From NCBI RefSeq assembly GCF_963506605.1, contig NC_083288.1, positions 42,222,001 through 42,286,000 of the forward strand: 64,000 nt of DNA, written 5' to 3'. Each line of letters opens with the position of its first letter. The stretch's first letter is position 1. Of the stretch, positions 1-22,606 are shown in pieces. Position numbers and translations under genes: made by a program. A model generated the notes under the pieces. The model was not told where the DNA came from and did no database searches. It saw only the letters and a list, made by a program, of their open reading frames with translations. The stretch is from Zootoca vivipara. Its lineage: Eukaryota.

Positions 1-408
1 CCGAGACCTACATTGGCTCCCAGTACGTTTCCAAGCACAATTCAACGTGTTGGTGCTGACCTTTAAAGCCCTAAATGGCTACGGTCCAGTATACCTGAAG
101 GAGCGTCTCCACCCCCATCGTTCTGCCCGGACACTGAGATCCAGTGCCAAGGGCCTTCTGCCAGTTCCCTCACTGCGAGAAGCAAAGCCTACAGGGAACC
201 AGGCAGAGGGCCTTCTCAGTAGTGGCACCCGCCCTGTGGAACACCCTCCCATCAGAGGTCAGAGAGATAAACAACTACCTGACATTTAGAAAATACCTAA
301 AGGCAGCCCTGTTTAGGGAAGTTTTAATCTGTGATATTTGATGTATTTTAATGTTTGTTGGAAGCCGCCCAGAGTGGCAGGGCAAGCCCAGCCAGATGGG
401 CGGGGTAT
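1..408 (+). mobile_element. L2-clade LINE, 3' end (RT C-terminal remnant plus 3'UTR)
   Basis: LHWLPV..QFNVLVLTFKALNG and RAFSVVAPALWNTLP motifs split over frames; ends GGGCGGGGTATAAAT followed by a (TTA)n tail; same family as 21748-22606. Confidence 0.85.
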
Positions 409-410
409 AA

Positions 411-457
<47 letters not shown>
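409..457. repeat. (TTA)n microsatellite, L2 tail
   Basis: About 16 perfect TTA units. Confidence 0.95.
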
Positions 458-458
<1 letters not shown>

Positions 459-571
459 GTCACGGTGCCTGGAGAAGGCTACTTCAGAGTAACGACTCTA
501 CACAGCTCTGCATTTTATGGTTTTATTGGTGCTGAGTATTTACAGTGCTAATGGCAGTGCTATTTACAAAG
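458..571 (-). repeat. Inverted copy of LTR 3' end (114 bp)
   Basis: Exact reverse complement of 3503-3616, starting at the LTR terminus (TGTCAC). Confidence 0.95.
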
Positions 572-1064
572 CATGTGAAGGATGTCAGGGAGGTGTTGCA
601 GCGCCTGAAGGAGAACCACCTGTATATGAAGCTGGAGAAGTGCAAGTTTCACACCAGGGAGGTGGACTTCCTGGGCTACAAGCTATCAGACAAGGGGCTA
701 GCGATGGACAAGGACAAGGTGCAGGCCCAACAAAGATGCCCAACGCCTACTAGGCTTCGCCAACTTCTACAGGAAGTTCATCAAGAACTTCTCTCGCGTT
801 ACGGCTCCCATCACTGACTGCCTGAGAGGCAAGCAGAAGTTCAGGTGGACACCAGAGGCGCAAGCAGCGTTCGAAAGCCTCAAGAGGGTGTTCGCTTCGG
901 ACCAGAACCTGTTCCACGTGGTGCAGGATGCGCCCCTACGCGTTGAGACCGATGCTTCAGACAGAGCTTTGGGCGCCATTTTGCTGCAACTGGATGCCAA
1001 CAGAGAGTGAAGACCCTGTGCCTTCTTCTCCAGAAAGCTGACCCAGCCAGAGCGCAACTACACG
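570..1064 (+). pseudogene. pol: Gypsy pol: RT C-terminal half and RNase H N-terminal part, disrupted
   Basis: HVKDVREVLQRL..KLEKCKF..VDFLGY; small deletion/frameshift near 728; LLGFANFYRKFI..ETDASD; in-frame TGA at 1008-1010 where Trp is expected. Confidence 0.9.
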
Positions 1065-3257
1065 GTGTTTGATAAGGAACTTCTCGCGATCCACGCTCCG
1101 TTCCAGCATTGGAGACACTTCCTGGCGGGCGCTAAGCATCCCATTCAGGTGTGCACGGACCACAAGAACTTGGAGTTCTGGAGAACAGCCAGGGTGCTCA
1201 ACCAGCGGCAGATACGGTGGGCAGAGTTCTTCTCGCACTTCAACTTCTCCATCCACTACATACCGGGGGAGCAGAACGTCAGGGCGGATGCCCTATCCCG
1301 CAAGCCAGAGTACATGGAGGAGGAGTTGCCACCAGCACCCCGTCACATTTTCCCCCCATCAGCATGGTCCTGCGGAGCAGCAGTGGTGAGCGAGGCAGAA
1401 CTCACAGCACTGACGGCAGCAGATGAGTTCGCCACCCGCATCTTCAGAGAGCTGCGAGGGGGGAGGGAGCAGGCAAGAGACTTTGAGGAAAGGAGGGGGT
1501 TGCTTTTTTACAGGGGAGCCCTGTACCTGCCCACCAACCAGCTCAGAGGTAAGGTCCTCAAGCAGATGCACGACAACCCGGCGGCGGGTCATTTTGGAAG
1601 GGACAAAACCACTCACCTAGTCATGAGACACTTCTGGTGGCCAGGGGTGCGGGAGGATGTTCGGGACTATGTAAGGGGCTGTGACACCTGCCAGCGAGCA
1701 AAGGTGGTCAGAGCACCACCAGCAGGATTGCTGGAGCCATTAGCCACACCGCACAGGCCGTGGGAAGTAGTGTCCATGCACTTCATCACCGACCTGCCGT
1801 CGTCCAGGGGCAAGACCACAGTGTTGGTGGTGGTGGACCTCATGTCCAAAATGTGCCATTTTATACCGTGTGCCAGGGCGGTCTCTGCAGAAGAGACAGC
1901 CAAACTGTTTGTTGACCACGTATTCAGACTGCATGGATTACCTTTAAGAGTTATTTCGGATAGAGGCCGCCAATTTGTTTCCAGGTTCTGGCGGCGGCTC
2001 ATGAACCTCCTGCAGGTGGAGGTCAGCTTGTCGACGGCTCGGCACCCGCAGACCAATGGACAGGCGGAGCGGGTCAACGCCATTCTGCAGCAGTACCTGA
2101 GATGTTACGTCAGCCAGAGGCAAACGGACTGGGTGGATCGCCTGCCACTGGCAGAATTTGCCTACAACAATGCGGTGCACGTCTCCACAGGGGTGTCGCC
2201 CTTTAAGGCCAACTACGGGCGCGACCTCAGATCTTTCCCGGAGAGGGAGGGGGAGGAGGAGGAGGAGGGCCCACAGGCAGAGGATTGGGCAGAGGAACTG
2301 GAGACGGTGCACCAGCAGCTCAGAGAGCACTTGGAGAGGGCCAAGGAAGCGTACAAGAAGGGAGCAGATCGTCACAGGCGACCGGGGGAGGTCATCAGGG
2401 TGGGGGACAAGGTTTGGTTGTCCTCGGAGGGCCTGCCCACCAGAGGGAGGTGCAAAAAGCTGGCACCCAGAAGGTTGGGCCCCTTCACGGTCACGCAGCA
2501 GGTAAACCCGGTGGCATTCAGGCTGGCACTGCCAGAGGACATGAGGGTACACCCAGTGTTTCATAGATCACTGCTGTCTCCGTACAGGGAAAGTGGCAGG
2601 TTCCGAGACAGCGCACAGACCCCCGAGGGAGGGGTGGAGGGTGGAGGCAGGGAGCCACTCAATGAAGCAACGGCCATCCTTGATTCACGAAGGGGGGTGG
2701 GGGGCCTGGAGTACCTCATGGCATGGGAGGACGCCCCGCCATCCCAAAATGAGTGGATCCAAGCCACTCAGATACAGGAGGAATTCTTAGTGGAAGAATT
2801 CCACGCCCTCTTCCCACACAGGCCCAAGCCCTGGCACATGGAACGGGAATGGGAGGAGGAGGAAACACAGGAGGGGGAAAGCAGTTCACCATGGAGATGG
2901 GAAGCAGAGTTTGAGGACACGGAGGAGGAGATATGGGCAGTTCCGAGGTCCACTCAGTCTGAGGACGAGGTGGACTGGCAGCAGATTTTCACCCCCACCA
3001 GTTCTGAGGCCACGGACTTTTTGGGATTTCCCTCTTCACAGGAGGAAGGAGGGAGACAGAGGGACTGGGGGGAGGTGTTCACACCAACCGGATCGGACAG
3101 CACGGAGTTTCTAGGTTTTCAGTCACCACTGACACCCGAGCAGCCTCTAGGGAGGGGAGAAGGGGGGCCTGGGGGGGGAATGGATGTGAGGGGCAAGGAA
3201 TATCACGAAGCTGTAGCCTCCCCTCCTGAGTTCCAGCCCAGACCCGAGCGAGGCTGA
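1065..3257 (+). CDS. pol: Gypsy pol: RNase H C-terminus, integrase, chromodomain and acidic tail (open frame, not independently initiated)
   Basis: TDHKNL, ADALSR; HHCC (H..GH..CDTC); DDE core with first Asp changed to His (VSMHFIT), ISDRG, ERVN; GPF motif; chromodomain ILDSR..EYLMAW..NEW; frame runs 73 nt into the LTR. Confidence 0.9.
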   Translation: MFDKELLAIHAPFQHWRHFLAGAKHPIQVCTDHKNLEFWRTARVLNQRQIRWAEFFSHFNFSIHYIPGEQNVRADALSRKPEYMEEELPPAPRHIFPPSAWSCGAAVVSEAELTALTAADEFATRIFRELRGGREQARDFEERRGLLFYRGALYLPTNQLRGKVLKQMHDNPAAGHFGRDKTTHLVMRHFWWPGVREDVRDYVRGCDTCQRAKVVRAPPAGLLEPLATPHRPWEVVSMHFITDLPSSRGKTTVLVVVDLMSKMCHFIPCARAVSAEETAKLFVDHVFRLHGLPLRVISDRGRQFVSRFWRRLMNLLQVEVSLSTARHPQTNGQAERVNAILQQYLRCYVSQRQTDWVDRLPLAEFAYNNAVHVSTGVSPFKANYGRDLRSFPEREGEEEEEGPQAEDWAEELETVHQQLREHLERAKEAYKKGADRHRRPGEVIRVGDKVWLSSEGLPTRGRCKKLAPRRLGPFTVTQQVNPVAFRLALPEDMRVHPVFHRSLLSPYRESGRFRDSAQTPEGGVEGGGREPLNEATAILDSRRGVGGLEYLMAWEDAPPSQNEWIQATQIQEEFLVEEFHALFPHRPKPWHMEREWEEEETQEGESSSPWRWEAEFEDTEEEIWAVPRSTQSEDEVDWQQIFTPTSSEATDFLGFPSSQEEGGRQRDWGEVFTPTGSDSTEFLGFQSPLTPEQPLGRGEGGPGGGMDVRGKEYHEAVASPPEFQPRPERG
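3139..3184 (+). other. Polypurine tract upstream of LTR
   Basis: G/A-rich stretch GGGAGGGGAGAAGGGGGG..GGGGGGGGAATGGA immediately before TGTGAG. Confidence 0.75.
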
Positions 3258-3616
3258 AAAGAAGGAAAGCTCCAGCTCAAGTGGGGAAACAGGAAGTGGG
3301 TTCCAAGGCTCTGGCAGGGAAAGAGAGCCATCGTCCCAGGTGGGACAGGAAGGGGAAAGGAAGGGGGGCAGGCCAGTCCCCCCAACTCCGGAACTTCGCA
3401 AAAGGCGTCGGGGGAAGAGGATGGGTCTCCCCAAGTTATTATGTTGGTGCAAAACGCGCCAAAAGCCACTGGGAGGTTCTGATTCAAGCTAAACAGATGG
3501 ATCTTTGTAAATAGCACTGCCATTAGCACTGTAAATACTCAGCACCAATAAAACCATAAAATGCAGAGCTGTGTAGAGTCGTTACTCTGAAGTAGCCTTC
3601 TCCAGGCACCGTGACA
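3185..3616 (+). repeat. Gypsy LTR (about 432 bp, TGT...ACA)
   Basis: Follows the PPT; AATAAA at about 3546; ends CGTGACA; 3' boundary confirmed by the inverted copy at 458; gag ATG 41 nt downstream. Confidence 0.85.
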
Positions 3617-3618
3617 GC

Positions 3619-3629
3619 AACCTCCCAGT
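3619..3629 (+). promoter_or_regulatory. Self-priming primer-binding site (Tf1 type)
   Basis: AACCTCCCAGT is the exact 11-nt reverse complement of ACTGGGAGGTT at 3468-3478 in the LTR; no tRNA-type TGG PBS. Confidence 0.8.
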
Positions 3630-3656
3630 CTTTCTGGCTACTTTGGAGCGGCAGCG

Positions 3657-5108
3657 ATGAGTGCGCAAGAAGCTGAGCAGTGGAGGCTGGAAGCCGAGGC
3701 CACAGCACAGGAATTGCGGAACGTACAGACCCTGGCAACGCAGGCACACCAGCAATTACTTGCAGCTCAGGAAGAAGCACAAGCAACGCGGGAGGAGCTG
3801 AACAAACTGGCAGAGCAGGTGAGAGCGAAAGATGAGACTGAGAAGCAACTCAGGGTGATGGTGGCGGAATTACAGAAAAAGCTTGATGAGGAAAAGGCTG
3901 CAAGAGGTGGGGGGGTGCCCCAGCCCCAGCTAGTCCAAGTGAGGAGGGGACAGACCCTAGTCACCAAGTTTAGCGGCGACCCGAGAGAGTACCTAGGCTT
4001 TGAGACGGAAATAAATTATGCGCTGGAACTGCATGCGGCAGAGTTCCCAGATGACGCGCACAGAGTCTCCTTCATCATAGAGTATTTGATGGGGGCTGCC
4101 AGAGAATGGGTCAGACCGCTCATCGCGCAAAAAAATAATTGCATAAAGAATGCAAAACTCTTCTTAGAAGCGTTAAAAATCATGTATGCTAGTGATTCGG
4201 AGATGGAAGCCACAAAAGAGCAGCTGCACAACTTAACACAAGGGAAATCGACAGTTCGAGACTATTGGGCGAGATTCACCATGCTAGTGCACAAACTGGG
4301 GTGGGATTTGCACAGTGAGCCAGTGAAATCAGCCTTCTACCTGGGGTTGCACTCAGACGTTAAGGATGAACTAGCGAGAGGTCCGAAACTGCGGACAATG
4401 GAAGAGTTAAGCAAAGCGGTGCTAGTGGTGGGGGTGAGACAGGAATCCAGATGGAATGACAAACAAACGACACGCGCAGCAAAGCCTTGGTTCCCACGCT
4501 CCCAGGACAGACCACATTACCAAACCCCACCCCAGGGCCCACCCCTAGTCACGCCCAGACCGAGCTCAGAGCCGGAACCGATGGAGATCGGTGGAGCGCG
4601 CGCGCGGGCTTTTCAAACCCCGGCGGCGCCAAGACGCAAGGAGGGAAGAGGCGGGAATTGCTTTCTCTGCAACTCCCCCCAGCATCGCGTCAGAGACTGC
4701 CCTCATCGCAGGGAGTGGCAAGGAAAGGCGGGAACGGTTGTGCCTTCCCCCACTGAAGCAGCACCACAGCAGGGAAACGAGACAGCCTGGCTGCAGGAGA
4801 CAAGGGGCAGCAGCCAGGCACAGTTAGCACAAACCGGCCCCAACCCGCCCACCCGCACAGCGAGGAGCAGCGACAGCCCCCCCCCCCAGAGCAGGGGTGG
4901 TTCTAGAAGTGACGCTAACGCTCCCAAATGGCTATCCCCTGACGGTACTCGCGTAATTGACAGTGGTGCCTCGGCTAACTTCTTCTCAAGAAACTTTGCA
5001 GAAGCACACCAGATCCAACTTCTGCAGCTGGATTTCCCCCTGCACGTCTCCACCATAGACGGCAGGGAGTTGCTGGGGGGGGGCATCACCCACCAGACCC
5101 CCCCATGA
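3657..5108 (+). CDS. gag: Gypsy gag (coiled coil, capsid, CCHC knuckle), joined to the protease by indels
   Basis: KFSGDP..F, LTQG..TVRDY..F, PEPMEIG, CFLCNSPQHRVRDC; IDSGASANF protease site in the last part. Confidence 0.9.
   Translation: MSAQEAEQWRLEAEATAQELRNVQTLATQAHQQLLAAQEEAQATREELNKLAEQVRAKDETEKQLRVMVAELQKKLDEEKAARGGGVPQPQLVQVRRGQTLVTKFSGDPREYLGFETEINYALELHAAEFPDDAHRVSFIIEYLMGAAREWVRPLIAQKNNCIKNAKLFLEALKIMYASDSEMEATKEQLHNLTQGKSTVRDYWARFTMLVHKLGWDLHSEPVKSAFYLGLHSDVKDELARGPKLRTMEELSKAVLVVGVRQESRWNDKQTTRAAKPWFPRSQDRPHYQTPPQGPPLVTPRPSSEPEPMEIGGARARAFQTPAAPRRKEGRGGNCFLCNSPQHRVRDCPHRREWQGKAGTVVPSPTEAAPQQGNETAWLQETRGSSQAQLAQTGPNPPTRTARSSDSPPPQSRGGSRSDANAPKWLSPDGTRVIDSGASANFFSRNFAEAHQIQLLQLDFPLHVSTIDGRELLGGGITHQTPP
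4772..4819 (+). promoter_or_regulatory. -1 programmed ribosomal frameshift signal
   Basis: G GGA AAC slippery heptamer in gag frame (4772-4778), 6-nt spacer, 10-bp stem GCCTGGCTGC (4785-4794) / GCAGCCAGGC (4810-4819). Confidence 0.85.
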
Positions 5109-5961
5109 GAATGGCGGTGGGACGACACTCAGAGACACTGGCATTCAACGTCACCACCATTTCCGACCCCCCCATCGTCTTGGGCATGAGCTGGCTGGCG
5201 CGCCATGACCCCTCCATCAGTTGGCACCAGAGATGCATCACGTTTGGATCGGACTTTTGTCTGGAACATTGCATGCAGCGCCAACCAGGGGAGGGGCCTC
5301 CCATCGCCACAGTGGCCACCATGCACATCAAAGGGGGTGAGGCAATACCCAAACCGTACTGGGACCTACAGGAGGTCTTCAGCGAAGCGGAGTCCGACCA
5401 CCTACCCCCACACAGGTCCTTTGACTGTCAGATCAACCTGGTGCCAGGGGCCACGCTACCCCCAGCCAAGCTGTACTCCATGTCAGATCAGGAACTGGAG
5501 GATCTGAGGGAGTTCATCGACAAGAACCTCAAGCGGGGATTCATCAGAGAAAGCAAGGCAGCGGGGGGCAGCCCGGTCTTCTGGGTGGACAAGAAGGACA
5601 CGCAACAGCGCCGTCTGGTGGTGGATTTTAGACGGCTCAATTCCATGACGGAACCGGTGGCTTTCCCAATGCCCAGAGTGGATGATCTGCTGACAGCGGC
5701 ACGCAGGGGCAAGATCTTCACCAAGCTCGACCTGAGGGGGGCGTACAACTTGATCAGAATCCGGGAAGGCGATGAGTGGAAGACCACGATGTTCACGCCG
5801 CTGGGCTCTTTTGAATATCTGGTGATGCCCTTCGGTTTGCAAGGGGACTCAGCATGCTTCCAGGCCTTCATGCACCACGTCCTGGGGTCCCTCCTCTTCA
5901 AGAAATGCCTGGTCTTCCTGGATGACATCCTTATATACTCCAATGACCCCGAGCAGCATGT
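5105..5961 (+). pseudogene. pol: Gypsy pol: protease C-terminus and RT N-terminal half, broken after FLDDILIYS
   Basis: IVLGMSWL, LPPHR, RLVVDFRRLN, LDLRGAYNLIRI, MPFGL, FLDD; continues at 570. Confidence 0.9.
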
Positions 5962-6177
5962 CTGGGCTGGAACTCAGGAGGGGAGGCTACAGCTTCGCGA
6001 TATCCCTTGCCCTTCACATCCATTCCCCCCCAGCCCCCCTTCTCCCCTCCCTAGAGGCTGCTCGGGTGTCAGTGGTGACTGAAAACCTAGAAACTCCGTG
6101 CTGTCCGATCCGGTTGGTGTGAACACCTCCCCCCAGTCCCTCTGTCTCCCTCCTTCCTCCTGTGAAGAGGGAAATCC
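5960..6177 (-). repeat. Inverted copy of integrase tail, PPT and LTR 5' end
   Basis: Reverse complement of 3024-3243 with 3 substitutions and 2 one-base indels. Confidence 0.9.
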
Positions 6178-6403
6178 TGGTGCCCCTGTAAGTGGAAATG
6201 GAAACTTCTGTTAAAGTTTAATTTAGTTTAGCTTAGTTTTGCAATTCCACTGAAACTTGCCAGATTTCAGCTGATAATTATCTCCCCTGTAATTACCCAA
6301 AAGACAGTAACTAACACTTCCACTTATCACACTCCTCACTCCCTAAGAACTTGCATTAGACACTACCAAATCTAATGAGAAAGTCTTGTCAATGATAGTA
6401 TAA

Positions 6404-21747: not shown

Positions 21748-22606
21748 TAATAATAATAATAATAATAATAATTTATTTATTTATTTATACCCCGCCCATC
21801 TGGCTGGGTTTCCCCAGCCACTCTGGGCGGCTTCAAACAGAAAAATAAAACACAATAATCTATTAAACATTAAAAAGCCTCCCTGAACAGGGCTGCCTTC
21901 AGATGTCTTCTAAAAGTCTGGTAGTTGTTTTCCTCTTTGACATCTGTTGGGAGGGCATTCCACAGGGCAGGCGCCACCACCGAGAAGGCCCTCTGCCTAG
22001 TTCCCTGCAACTTGGCTTCTCCCACCGAGGGAACCGCCAGAAGGCGCTCGGTGCTGGACCTCAGTGTCTGGGCAGAATGATGGAAGTGGAGACGCTCCTT
22101 CAGGTATATTGGACCGAGGCCATTTAGGGCTTTAAAGGTCAGCACCAACACGTTGAATTGTGCTCGGAAACATACTGGGAGCCAATGTAGATCTTTCAAG
22201 ACCGGTGTTAAGTGGTCTCGGCGGCCGCTCCCAGTCACCAGTCTAGCTGCCGCATTCTGGATTAGTTGTAGTTTCCGAGTCAACTTCAAAGGTAGCCCCA
22301 CGTAGAGCGCATTGCAGTAGTCCAAGTGGGAGATAACTAGAGCATGCACCACTCTGGCTAGACAGTCTGCAGGCAGGTAGGGTCTCAGCCTGCGTACCAG
22401 ATGGAGCTGATAGACAGCTGCCCTGGACACAGAATTGACCTGCGCCTTCATGGACAGCTGTGAGTCCAAAATGACTCCCAAGCTGCACACCTGGTCCTTC
22501 AGGGGCAGTTACCCCATTCAGGACCAGGGAACCCTCCACACCTGCCCGCCTCCTGTCCCCCACGAACAGTACTTCTGTCTTGTCAGGGTTCAACCTCAAT
22601 CTGTTA
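21748..22606 (-). mobile_element. L2-clade LINE, 5'-truncated, with (TTA)/(TAAA) tail
   Basis: ORFs LNPDKTE, LGVILDS..LDYCNALY..LQLIQNAAARL..LHWLPV; simple-repeat tail at 21748-21788. Confidence 0.9.

Follow-up and report, generated by a model that had tools for sequence, protein, structure and literature searches.

The window analysed here is a 64,000-nucleotide stretch of the genome of the lizard Zootoca vivipara (G000:C13:42222001-42286000; assembly of 1.44 Gb in 48 contigs), read without any undetermined letter (N). Near its left end, at 458-6177 and between two ANF_receptor-domain genes of a tandem cluster, which we take to be V2R-type (vomeronasal type 2) receptors, lies a copy of a long terminal repeat (LTR) retrotransposon whose coding region is circularly permuted around a complete LTR and enclosed between inverted pieces of that same LTR. 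A second element with this layout, found elsewhere in the assembly, bears on how such copies arise.

The two coding halves are separated by a 432-nt LTR at 3185-3616 (plus strand), complete from TG to CA, preceded by a polypurine tract (PPT), followed by a primer-binding region, and 97-98% identical to the other family LTRs scored (39/40). To its left, 570-3184 (plus strand) carries the 3' part of reverse transcriptase (RT), RNase H, integrase, an SH3 domain, a chromodomain-like region and the PPT, as judged from Pfam (matches over 536-3254, in this half PF00078, PF17919, PF17917, PF17921, PF00665, PF24626 and PF00385) and from sister alignments; the chromodomain match, PF00385, is weak (E 3.4e-05, 24.1 bits, below the cut-off of 25.1). 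To its right, 3617-5961 (plus strand) holds the leader, gag (ATG at 3657), protease and the 5' part of RT (Pfam matches over 3615-6079, with PF03732, PF19259, PF08284 and PF00078), with small frameshifting indels. These domains agree with the order (RT 3' part, RNase H and integrase, then LTR, gag, protease and RT 5' part) that an earlier note on this DNA had read from the letters. Once the permutation is allowed for, the copy is colinear with 10 intact sisters, and gag, protease, RT, RNase H and integrase follow one another in that order in intact family copies. On sequence grounds we assign the copy to the Ty3/gypsy LTR retrotransposons with a chromodomain-like region; chromodomain-bearing Ty3/gypsy elements are called chromoviruses. 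It shares with such elements the domain set, the TG…CA LTRs and the PPT, and its family makes a 5-bp target duplication, the LTR termini and this duplication being present in 10/10 intact sisters and the duplication also in 13/14 solo LTRs (among 18 loci); the copy differs in being permuted, broken and unfit as a normal transposition substrate. The family is large, with at least 1767 LTR-primer-site motifs in the assembly.

The left-hand coding half is broken by a net loss of 26 nt near 727, seen in 0/10 sisters, and by a stop near 1008; with this stop and the frameshifts the copy, which is intergenic, is dead, and it has no host function. The earlier note had called the permuted block exactly one unit long, which holds at the break in RT but not overall, as the block measures 5385 nt against 5399-5423 nt in the 10 sisters, mainly as a result of the 26-nt loss. 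At 720-735 this loss resembles a deletion accompanied by the insertion of a few letters taken from neighbouring sequence; it lies 157 nt from the left junction, and it may or may not belong to the permutation event.

The block begins and ends within RT at the heptanucleotide AGCATGT, which stands at 570-576 and again at 5955-5961 (both plus strand). Because AGCATGT occurs once at the corresponding RT site in 10/10 intact sisters, and because family reads or contigs connect 5954 to 570 through these 7 shared letters in 4/4 runs, no RT bases were lost at the break. The first two letters of the left copy (AG) and the last two of the right copy (GT) fit the adjoining LTR pieces equally well, and the RT duplication is 3-7 nt long, a range that includes the 5 bp of the family.

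On the left the block adjoins LTR bases 319-432 in inverted orientation (458-571, minus strand), with 0/114 differences from 3503-3616 and with the exact U5 end (CA) outermost, abutting ATAAT. The idea that this left end is not an integrase target was refuted by a solo LTR of the same family (L033) that has ATAAT as its 5-bp target. The target at this junction is the 3' end, with its (ATT)n tail, of a LINE-like (long interspersed element-like) repeat (1-457, plus strand), which extends further upstream (locus L001), has an inverted counterpart of 85% identity at 21748-22194 and is presumably an L2. On the right, 5960-6177 (minus strand) repeats 3024-3243 in reverse complement, departing from it by 3 substitutions and 2 gap letters, and consists of LTR bases 1-59 (5960-6018) followed by the PPT and integrase tail (6019-6177, a copy of 3024-3184). 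The outer left end is an exact LTR end, the outer right end is aberrant, terminating without an LTR end, and no target duplication was found at the ends of the copy. The five flank-versus-centre differences are all crowded into some 40 nt about the PPT/LTR boundary (3168-3205 against 5998-6035), the three substitutions being G/A. LTR bases 60-318 (259 nt) are missing from both flanks. The inverted flanks, the replacement of the LTR middle by the block, the 2-nt microhomologies at the inner junctions and the RT duplication without loss had all been described in the earlier note, and in these respects its description was accurate.

The central LTR contains a private net insertion of 4 nt (3212-3216, plus strand) that is missing in 10 sisters and recurs in the right flank (5987-5991); its motif has two matches in the assembly, both at this locus. 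The flanks do not come from an arbitrary sister, since this unique insertion is common to the right flank and the central LTR. These two also share a PPT substitution that is missing in the 9 sisters aligning there (the flank alignment covered 9 of the 10), and the left flank has a sub-lineage allele present in 4/28 other loci. As to the two halves of the block, minority alleles shared with one sister (L010) occur at 26 and 11 sites, as expected of one molecule, and private changes number 9 in the 2345 nt of the 5' half against 19 in 2615 nt, a similar amount of private change that gives no indication of two donors. The divergence between flanks and centre (3 substitutions in 332 nt) is like that between the 5' and 3' LTRs of the sisters (0-4 in 428 nt). 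Flanks and block therefore come from one donor, and have been separated for about as long as the LTR pair of an ordinary copy.

Each inner junction has a single match in the whole assembly (at most one mismatch), which ruled out a propagating rearranged subfamily and bears out the one-off rearrangement that the earlier note had envisaged. A permuted copy should have an LTR with the PPT before it and the primer site after it, and motif and spacing searches built on this logic gave 35 loci, all of which were fetched and aligned; the motifs were exact, and copies altered in either are missed, and it took the spacing of matches, considered for the first 100 of 210, to reveal two tandem dimers. Twenty loci were ordinary, nine were tandem arrays, four either ran on past one LTR or were truncated tandems, and two were permuted. 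Both permuted loci are flanked by inverted LTR pieces, and a permuted unit in unrelated DNA occurred in none of the 35.

The second permuted copy, of a kind for which the earlier note had proposed to search the genome, lies at G000:C5:28320504-28326322 (L075:4800-6601 and L076:1-4628) and belongs to another subfamily. Its left side reads GTAAC, an inverted LTR with an internal deletion (9-nt overlap) and GCCTG; its body consists of the 3' part of integrase, an LTR, and gag to the 5' part of integrase; its right side reads GCCTG, an inverted LTR with a different internal deletion, and GTAAC. Each of the four LTR junctions coincides with an exact LTR end; GCCTG, single in 4/4 related copies, is the 5 bp duplicated where the element is broken internally, GTAAC is the outer 5-bp genomic target duplication, and the three LTR copies share a narrow haplotype. 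LTR ends that join both sides of a 5-bp-duplicated internal site on opposite strands are the mark of integrase acting on an element's own DNA, as established for autointegration in retroviruses and retrotransposons (PMC2644782, PMC3148978, PMC7197481), and the C5 copy points to such an attack. It is the cleanest case of the class.

For the window copy it seems fairly likely that an opposite-strand autointegration into the RT gene was resolved by LTR exchange and followed by chromosomal insertion, which is a family of routes rather than a single path. Integrase would cut the internal site with a 5-bp stagger, so that the site is duplicated without loss (exactly so at C5, within 3-7 nt in the window). 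Repair synthesis from both target gaps would then displace the old LTR strands, and pairing of these complementary strands would leave the 3' half, an LTR and the 5' half co-oriented and enclosed by two inverted copies of the LTR, one at either side; LTR strand exchange is probably how the autointegrant was resolved, and its stalling at the LTR boundaries would create new CA ends. Short-homology jumps may have removed parts of the flanking LTRs, internal at C5 and break-adjacent in the window, or, with the same outcome in the window, unfinished cDNA 3' ends may have lain at LTR bases 319 and 59. Finally, integrase would have inserted the outer U5 end of the window copy at ATAAT, while the other end, overrunning the LTR by 161 nt into the PPT and integrase tail, would have been joined by host repair; at C5 integrase would have used both outer ends, giving the 5-bp target duplication. 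Two variants are inseparable from this by sequence, namely attack on a sibling one-LTR circle, and recombination of a circular isomer with a same-lineage chromosomal LTR, which would also yield the outer duplication at C5.

Several points weigh against this origin. A plain inversion circle has its halves in opposite orientation, which makes it necessary to suppose a further LTR exchange. The window and C5 copies are linked by layout only (n = 2), a strictly private marker common to the centre and flanks was not found at C5, and the C5 locus is known from the assembly alone. The inner junctions of the window copy, at LTR bases 319 and 59, are not the CA ends that integrase needs, and blunt joins would produce overlaps of 2 nt or more at both with a probability of 0.026, which favours end-joining or template switching. 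Among the read and contig records listed, none bridges 570 or 5961. Lastly, the fit of the duplicated RT bases to the family's target preference, apparently strong as support for an integrase cut on 10 duplications, became uninformative on 23, where 43% of the 7-mers of the block fit equally well, and was dropped. Two other suggestions about the break were also discarded: the RT site as an insertion hot spot was rejected, the single pattern match lying, by its sequence, outside the family RT site, and a cut in RT at a cryptic CA/TG site resembling an LTR junction was set aside, as no duplication would result. The window copy alone does not decide the mechanism.

The earlier note had proposed a one-LTR circle opened by a staggered cut in RT and captured by end-joining in a sister element; the staggered cut, the unit closed through one LTR and the singly occurring junctions stand, whereas an arbitrary sister is contradicted by the 4-nt marker, and the C5 copy points to integrase attack rather than to a random cut with end-joining. 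In a form adapted to these results, a free one-LTR circle would have been cut open in RT, leaving a short overhang, and microhomology end-joining would have placed it in the broken 3' LTR of a same-donor copy, most of which was lost or never inserted. The 2-nt overlaps at both inner junctions, the natural outer U5 end and the natural integrase tail would all follow; moreover, some gypsy-like elements yield chiefly one-LTR circles, and circles are abundant for HMS-Beagle (bioRxiv 2022.09.25.509424), and permuted reinsertion of circles is known (PMC7188851; bioRxiv 10.64898/2026.09.03.749254). However, circle and host would have to share a marker seen only at this locus in the assembly, the opening would have to duplicate rather than lose bases, the host would have to lose more than 5 kb, and the C5 copy, which combines this layout with exact LTR ends and 5-bp duplications, would be left unexplained. 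We consider this origin unlikely, and entertain it only for the window copy, where the inner junctions lie away from the LTR ends and have 2-nt overlaps.

That a single integrated copy was rearranged in place, through replication template switching or several breaks, appears quite improbable. Synthesis would leave the 3' LTR at base 319, copy the opposite strand from RT, cross from LTR to LTR by homology, halt at its starting point and resume at LTR base 59, a layout formally equal to a pair of neighbouring inversions in which the LTR overlap has collapsed. Such a course accounts for the shared private marker, for the 2-nt overlaps and for both natural flanks; germline breaks in the mouse show local inverted reinsertion with microhomology (bioRxiv 2020.06.23.168138), and tandem arrays make up 9 of the 35 internal-LTR loci, so that LTR-to-LTR exchange is common in the family. 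On the other hand, four switches would be needed, ending within 7 nt of the start, together with loss of the remaining element, and exact LTR-end junctions with a 5-bp duplication, as at C5, are impossible by this route.

Misassembly or chimeric reads among near-identical repeats we regard as very improbable: the size of the family, and inner breaks that none of the listed records bridges, would allow for it, but the window has no N, a contig of a second study reaches across its outer right junction, flank and centre have a unique marker in common although they are unlike at five places, and exact 7-nt and 5-nt duplications would be unlike collapsed repeats. That junction (6177/6178), for which a check of reads over 6170-6185 had been proposed earlier, is spanned by a 378-nt contig of run X5 with 0 differences and 67 letters on the element side; a contig of run X1, from another study, crosses it with 30 letters, one below our bridging rule. 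As neither contig breaks at 6178, an empty allele is unlikely in the X5 and X1 samples. A further X5 contig, of 60 nt and depth 37, carries two private alleles of the block, while runs X9 and X10, sampled at about 6%, are too thin for single-copy sites. An empty site was not found, the right-hand flank being single-copy and the paralogous V2R-type units aligning only from about 6275. There is a high probability that the observed layout is real.

The products known to be formed by autointegration are among the closest parallels to these copies. In retroviruses and retrotransposons, autointegration joins LTR ends on opposite strands to a duplicated internal site of the element (PMC2644782, PMC3148978, PMC7197481), and the resulting circles, which have two LTRs and inverted halves, are described as extrachromosomal and non-productive (the human immunodeficiency virus HIV-1: PMC2644782, PMC3148978; Arabidopsis SISYPHUS/ATCOPIA52: PMC7197481). 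The lizard copies resemble these inversion-type circles in having the element's own LTR ends at an internal site, on opposite strands, with LTRs inverted and the site duplicated (exactly, at C5). They differ in being chromosomal, with three LTR copies or pieces and with the halves co-oriented around a central LTR, and the window copy differs further in having no inner LTR ends. Inverted LTRs and a single donor are present in the window, where the duplication at the break is of 3-7 nt (exactly 5 at C5), but exact CA inner ends, present at C5, are missing, as is a two-LTR circle with opposed halves, its co-oriented halves and three LTR copies or pieces being joined instead to unique chromosomal DNA. 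Because both the exact inner ends and the two-LTR circle are lacking, we do not file the window copy as a canonical autointegrant; it looks like a damaged version that has lost its inner LTR ends, and so like a derivative of one.

The outer ends of the window copy recall one-ended aberrant integration, in which retroviruses (HIV-1 and avian sarcoma/leukosis virus, ASLV) have one normal end, the other being aberrant and fused to additional viral DNA (PMC5041404). One end is of integrase type (the exact LTR end at a plausible target, 458) and the other is aberrant, extended by copied element DNA (6177), with no short target duplication, as in those events; the latter were, however, induced by drugs or mutant ends, and a permuted genome is not described in the part of that paper used here. 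Permuted insertions mediated by extrachromosomal circular DNA (eccDNA; PMC7188851, bioRxiv 10.64898/2026.09.03.749254) share with our copies a cyclic shift in the order of blocks and short homology at the junctions, but concern chromosomal segments inserted in unrelated DNA, whereas the lizard unit is a retrotransposon, and at both permuted loci it lies between its own inverted LTRs.

A chromosomal permuted LTR element between inverted LTRs was not found in the literature searched, which consisted mostly of open papers and did not extend to four classic autointegration papers or to the supplementary data of PMC5041404 and PMC7197481; insertions of truncated or chimeric form are reported (PMC10462705). 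Autointegration is usually called a dead end, and two chromosomal copies resembling rescued autointegrants would show such products to be heritable. We propose, tentatively and as a possibility that may well prove wrong, that autointegration is not always suicidal, and that LTR exchange can restore integrase-competent ends, so that an inside-out element is inserted in germline chromosomes, completely at C5 and in a one-ended, damaged form in the window. The signature to be counted in assemblies is a central PPT, LTR and primer site, inverted LTRs outside and a short duplication at the internal break, and, if the proposal is true, it should be possible to count such inside-out fossils wherever a genome holds young LTR families. 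Standard LTR finders would be likely to misread these loci. The host is probably unaffected, the window copy being dead and intergenic and the class rare, at 2 loci against the at least 1767 family motifs.

The remaining internal-LTR loci of the survey were varied. The nine tandem arrays (L035-L038, L067/L068, L073/L074, L089/L090, L120-L125 and L015/L016) are LTR-sharing dimers and trimers with outer 5-bp duplications, one being a trimer of an internally deleted derivative. The four extended copies (L071/L072, L065/L066, L105/L106 and L116/L117) have about 108, 723 or 14 nt of leader past the 3' LTR, or about 1.3 kb of integrase before the 5' LTR, and are overshoot ends or truncated tandems. 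Five copies (L013, L039/L040, L041/L042, L043/L044 and L053) have a PPT-like (T)GGA before the 5' LTR and only the first two target bases duplicated, the right flank beginning with AT in 5/5, although 4/5 were chosen by a motif requiring the left letters; this suggests that a retained primer remnant replaces part of the target duplication.

Other observations concern the wider family and the neighbourhood of the window copy. A very young subfamily (L045-L064) is about 85% identical to that of the window, and its 5' and 3' LTRs are 100% identical in 15/19 pairs. Six loci on six contigs (L077, L087, L095, L101, L103 and L107) have the same flank, which starts with the primer-site-like GCAAC and is either a duplicated locus or a repeated target. 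Ordinary nesting occurs at G000:C13:1786424-1798051 (L088/L112), where a copy lies within the integrase gene of another, in the same orientation and with a 5-bp duplication. The pairs L005/L006 and L018/L019 have the same insertion flank, one member being truncated or a solo LTR, and are segmental duplicates. To the right of the permuted copy, about 570 nt of high read depth (6413-6987), missing upstream of the paralogous receptor genes, are probably a further repeat and possibly a solo LTR, and from 7290 to 64000 about five ANF_receptor genes (Pfam) follow in tandem at a spacing of about 10 kb.

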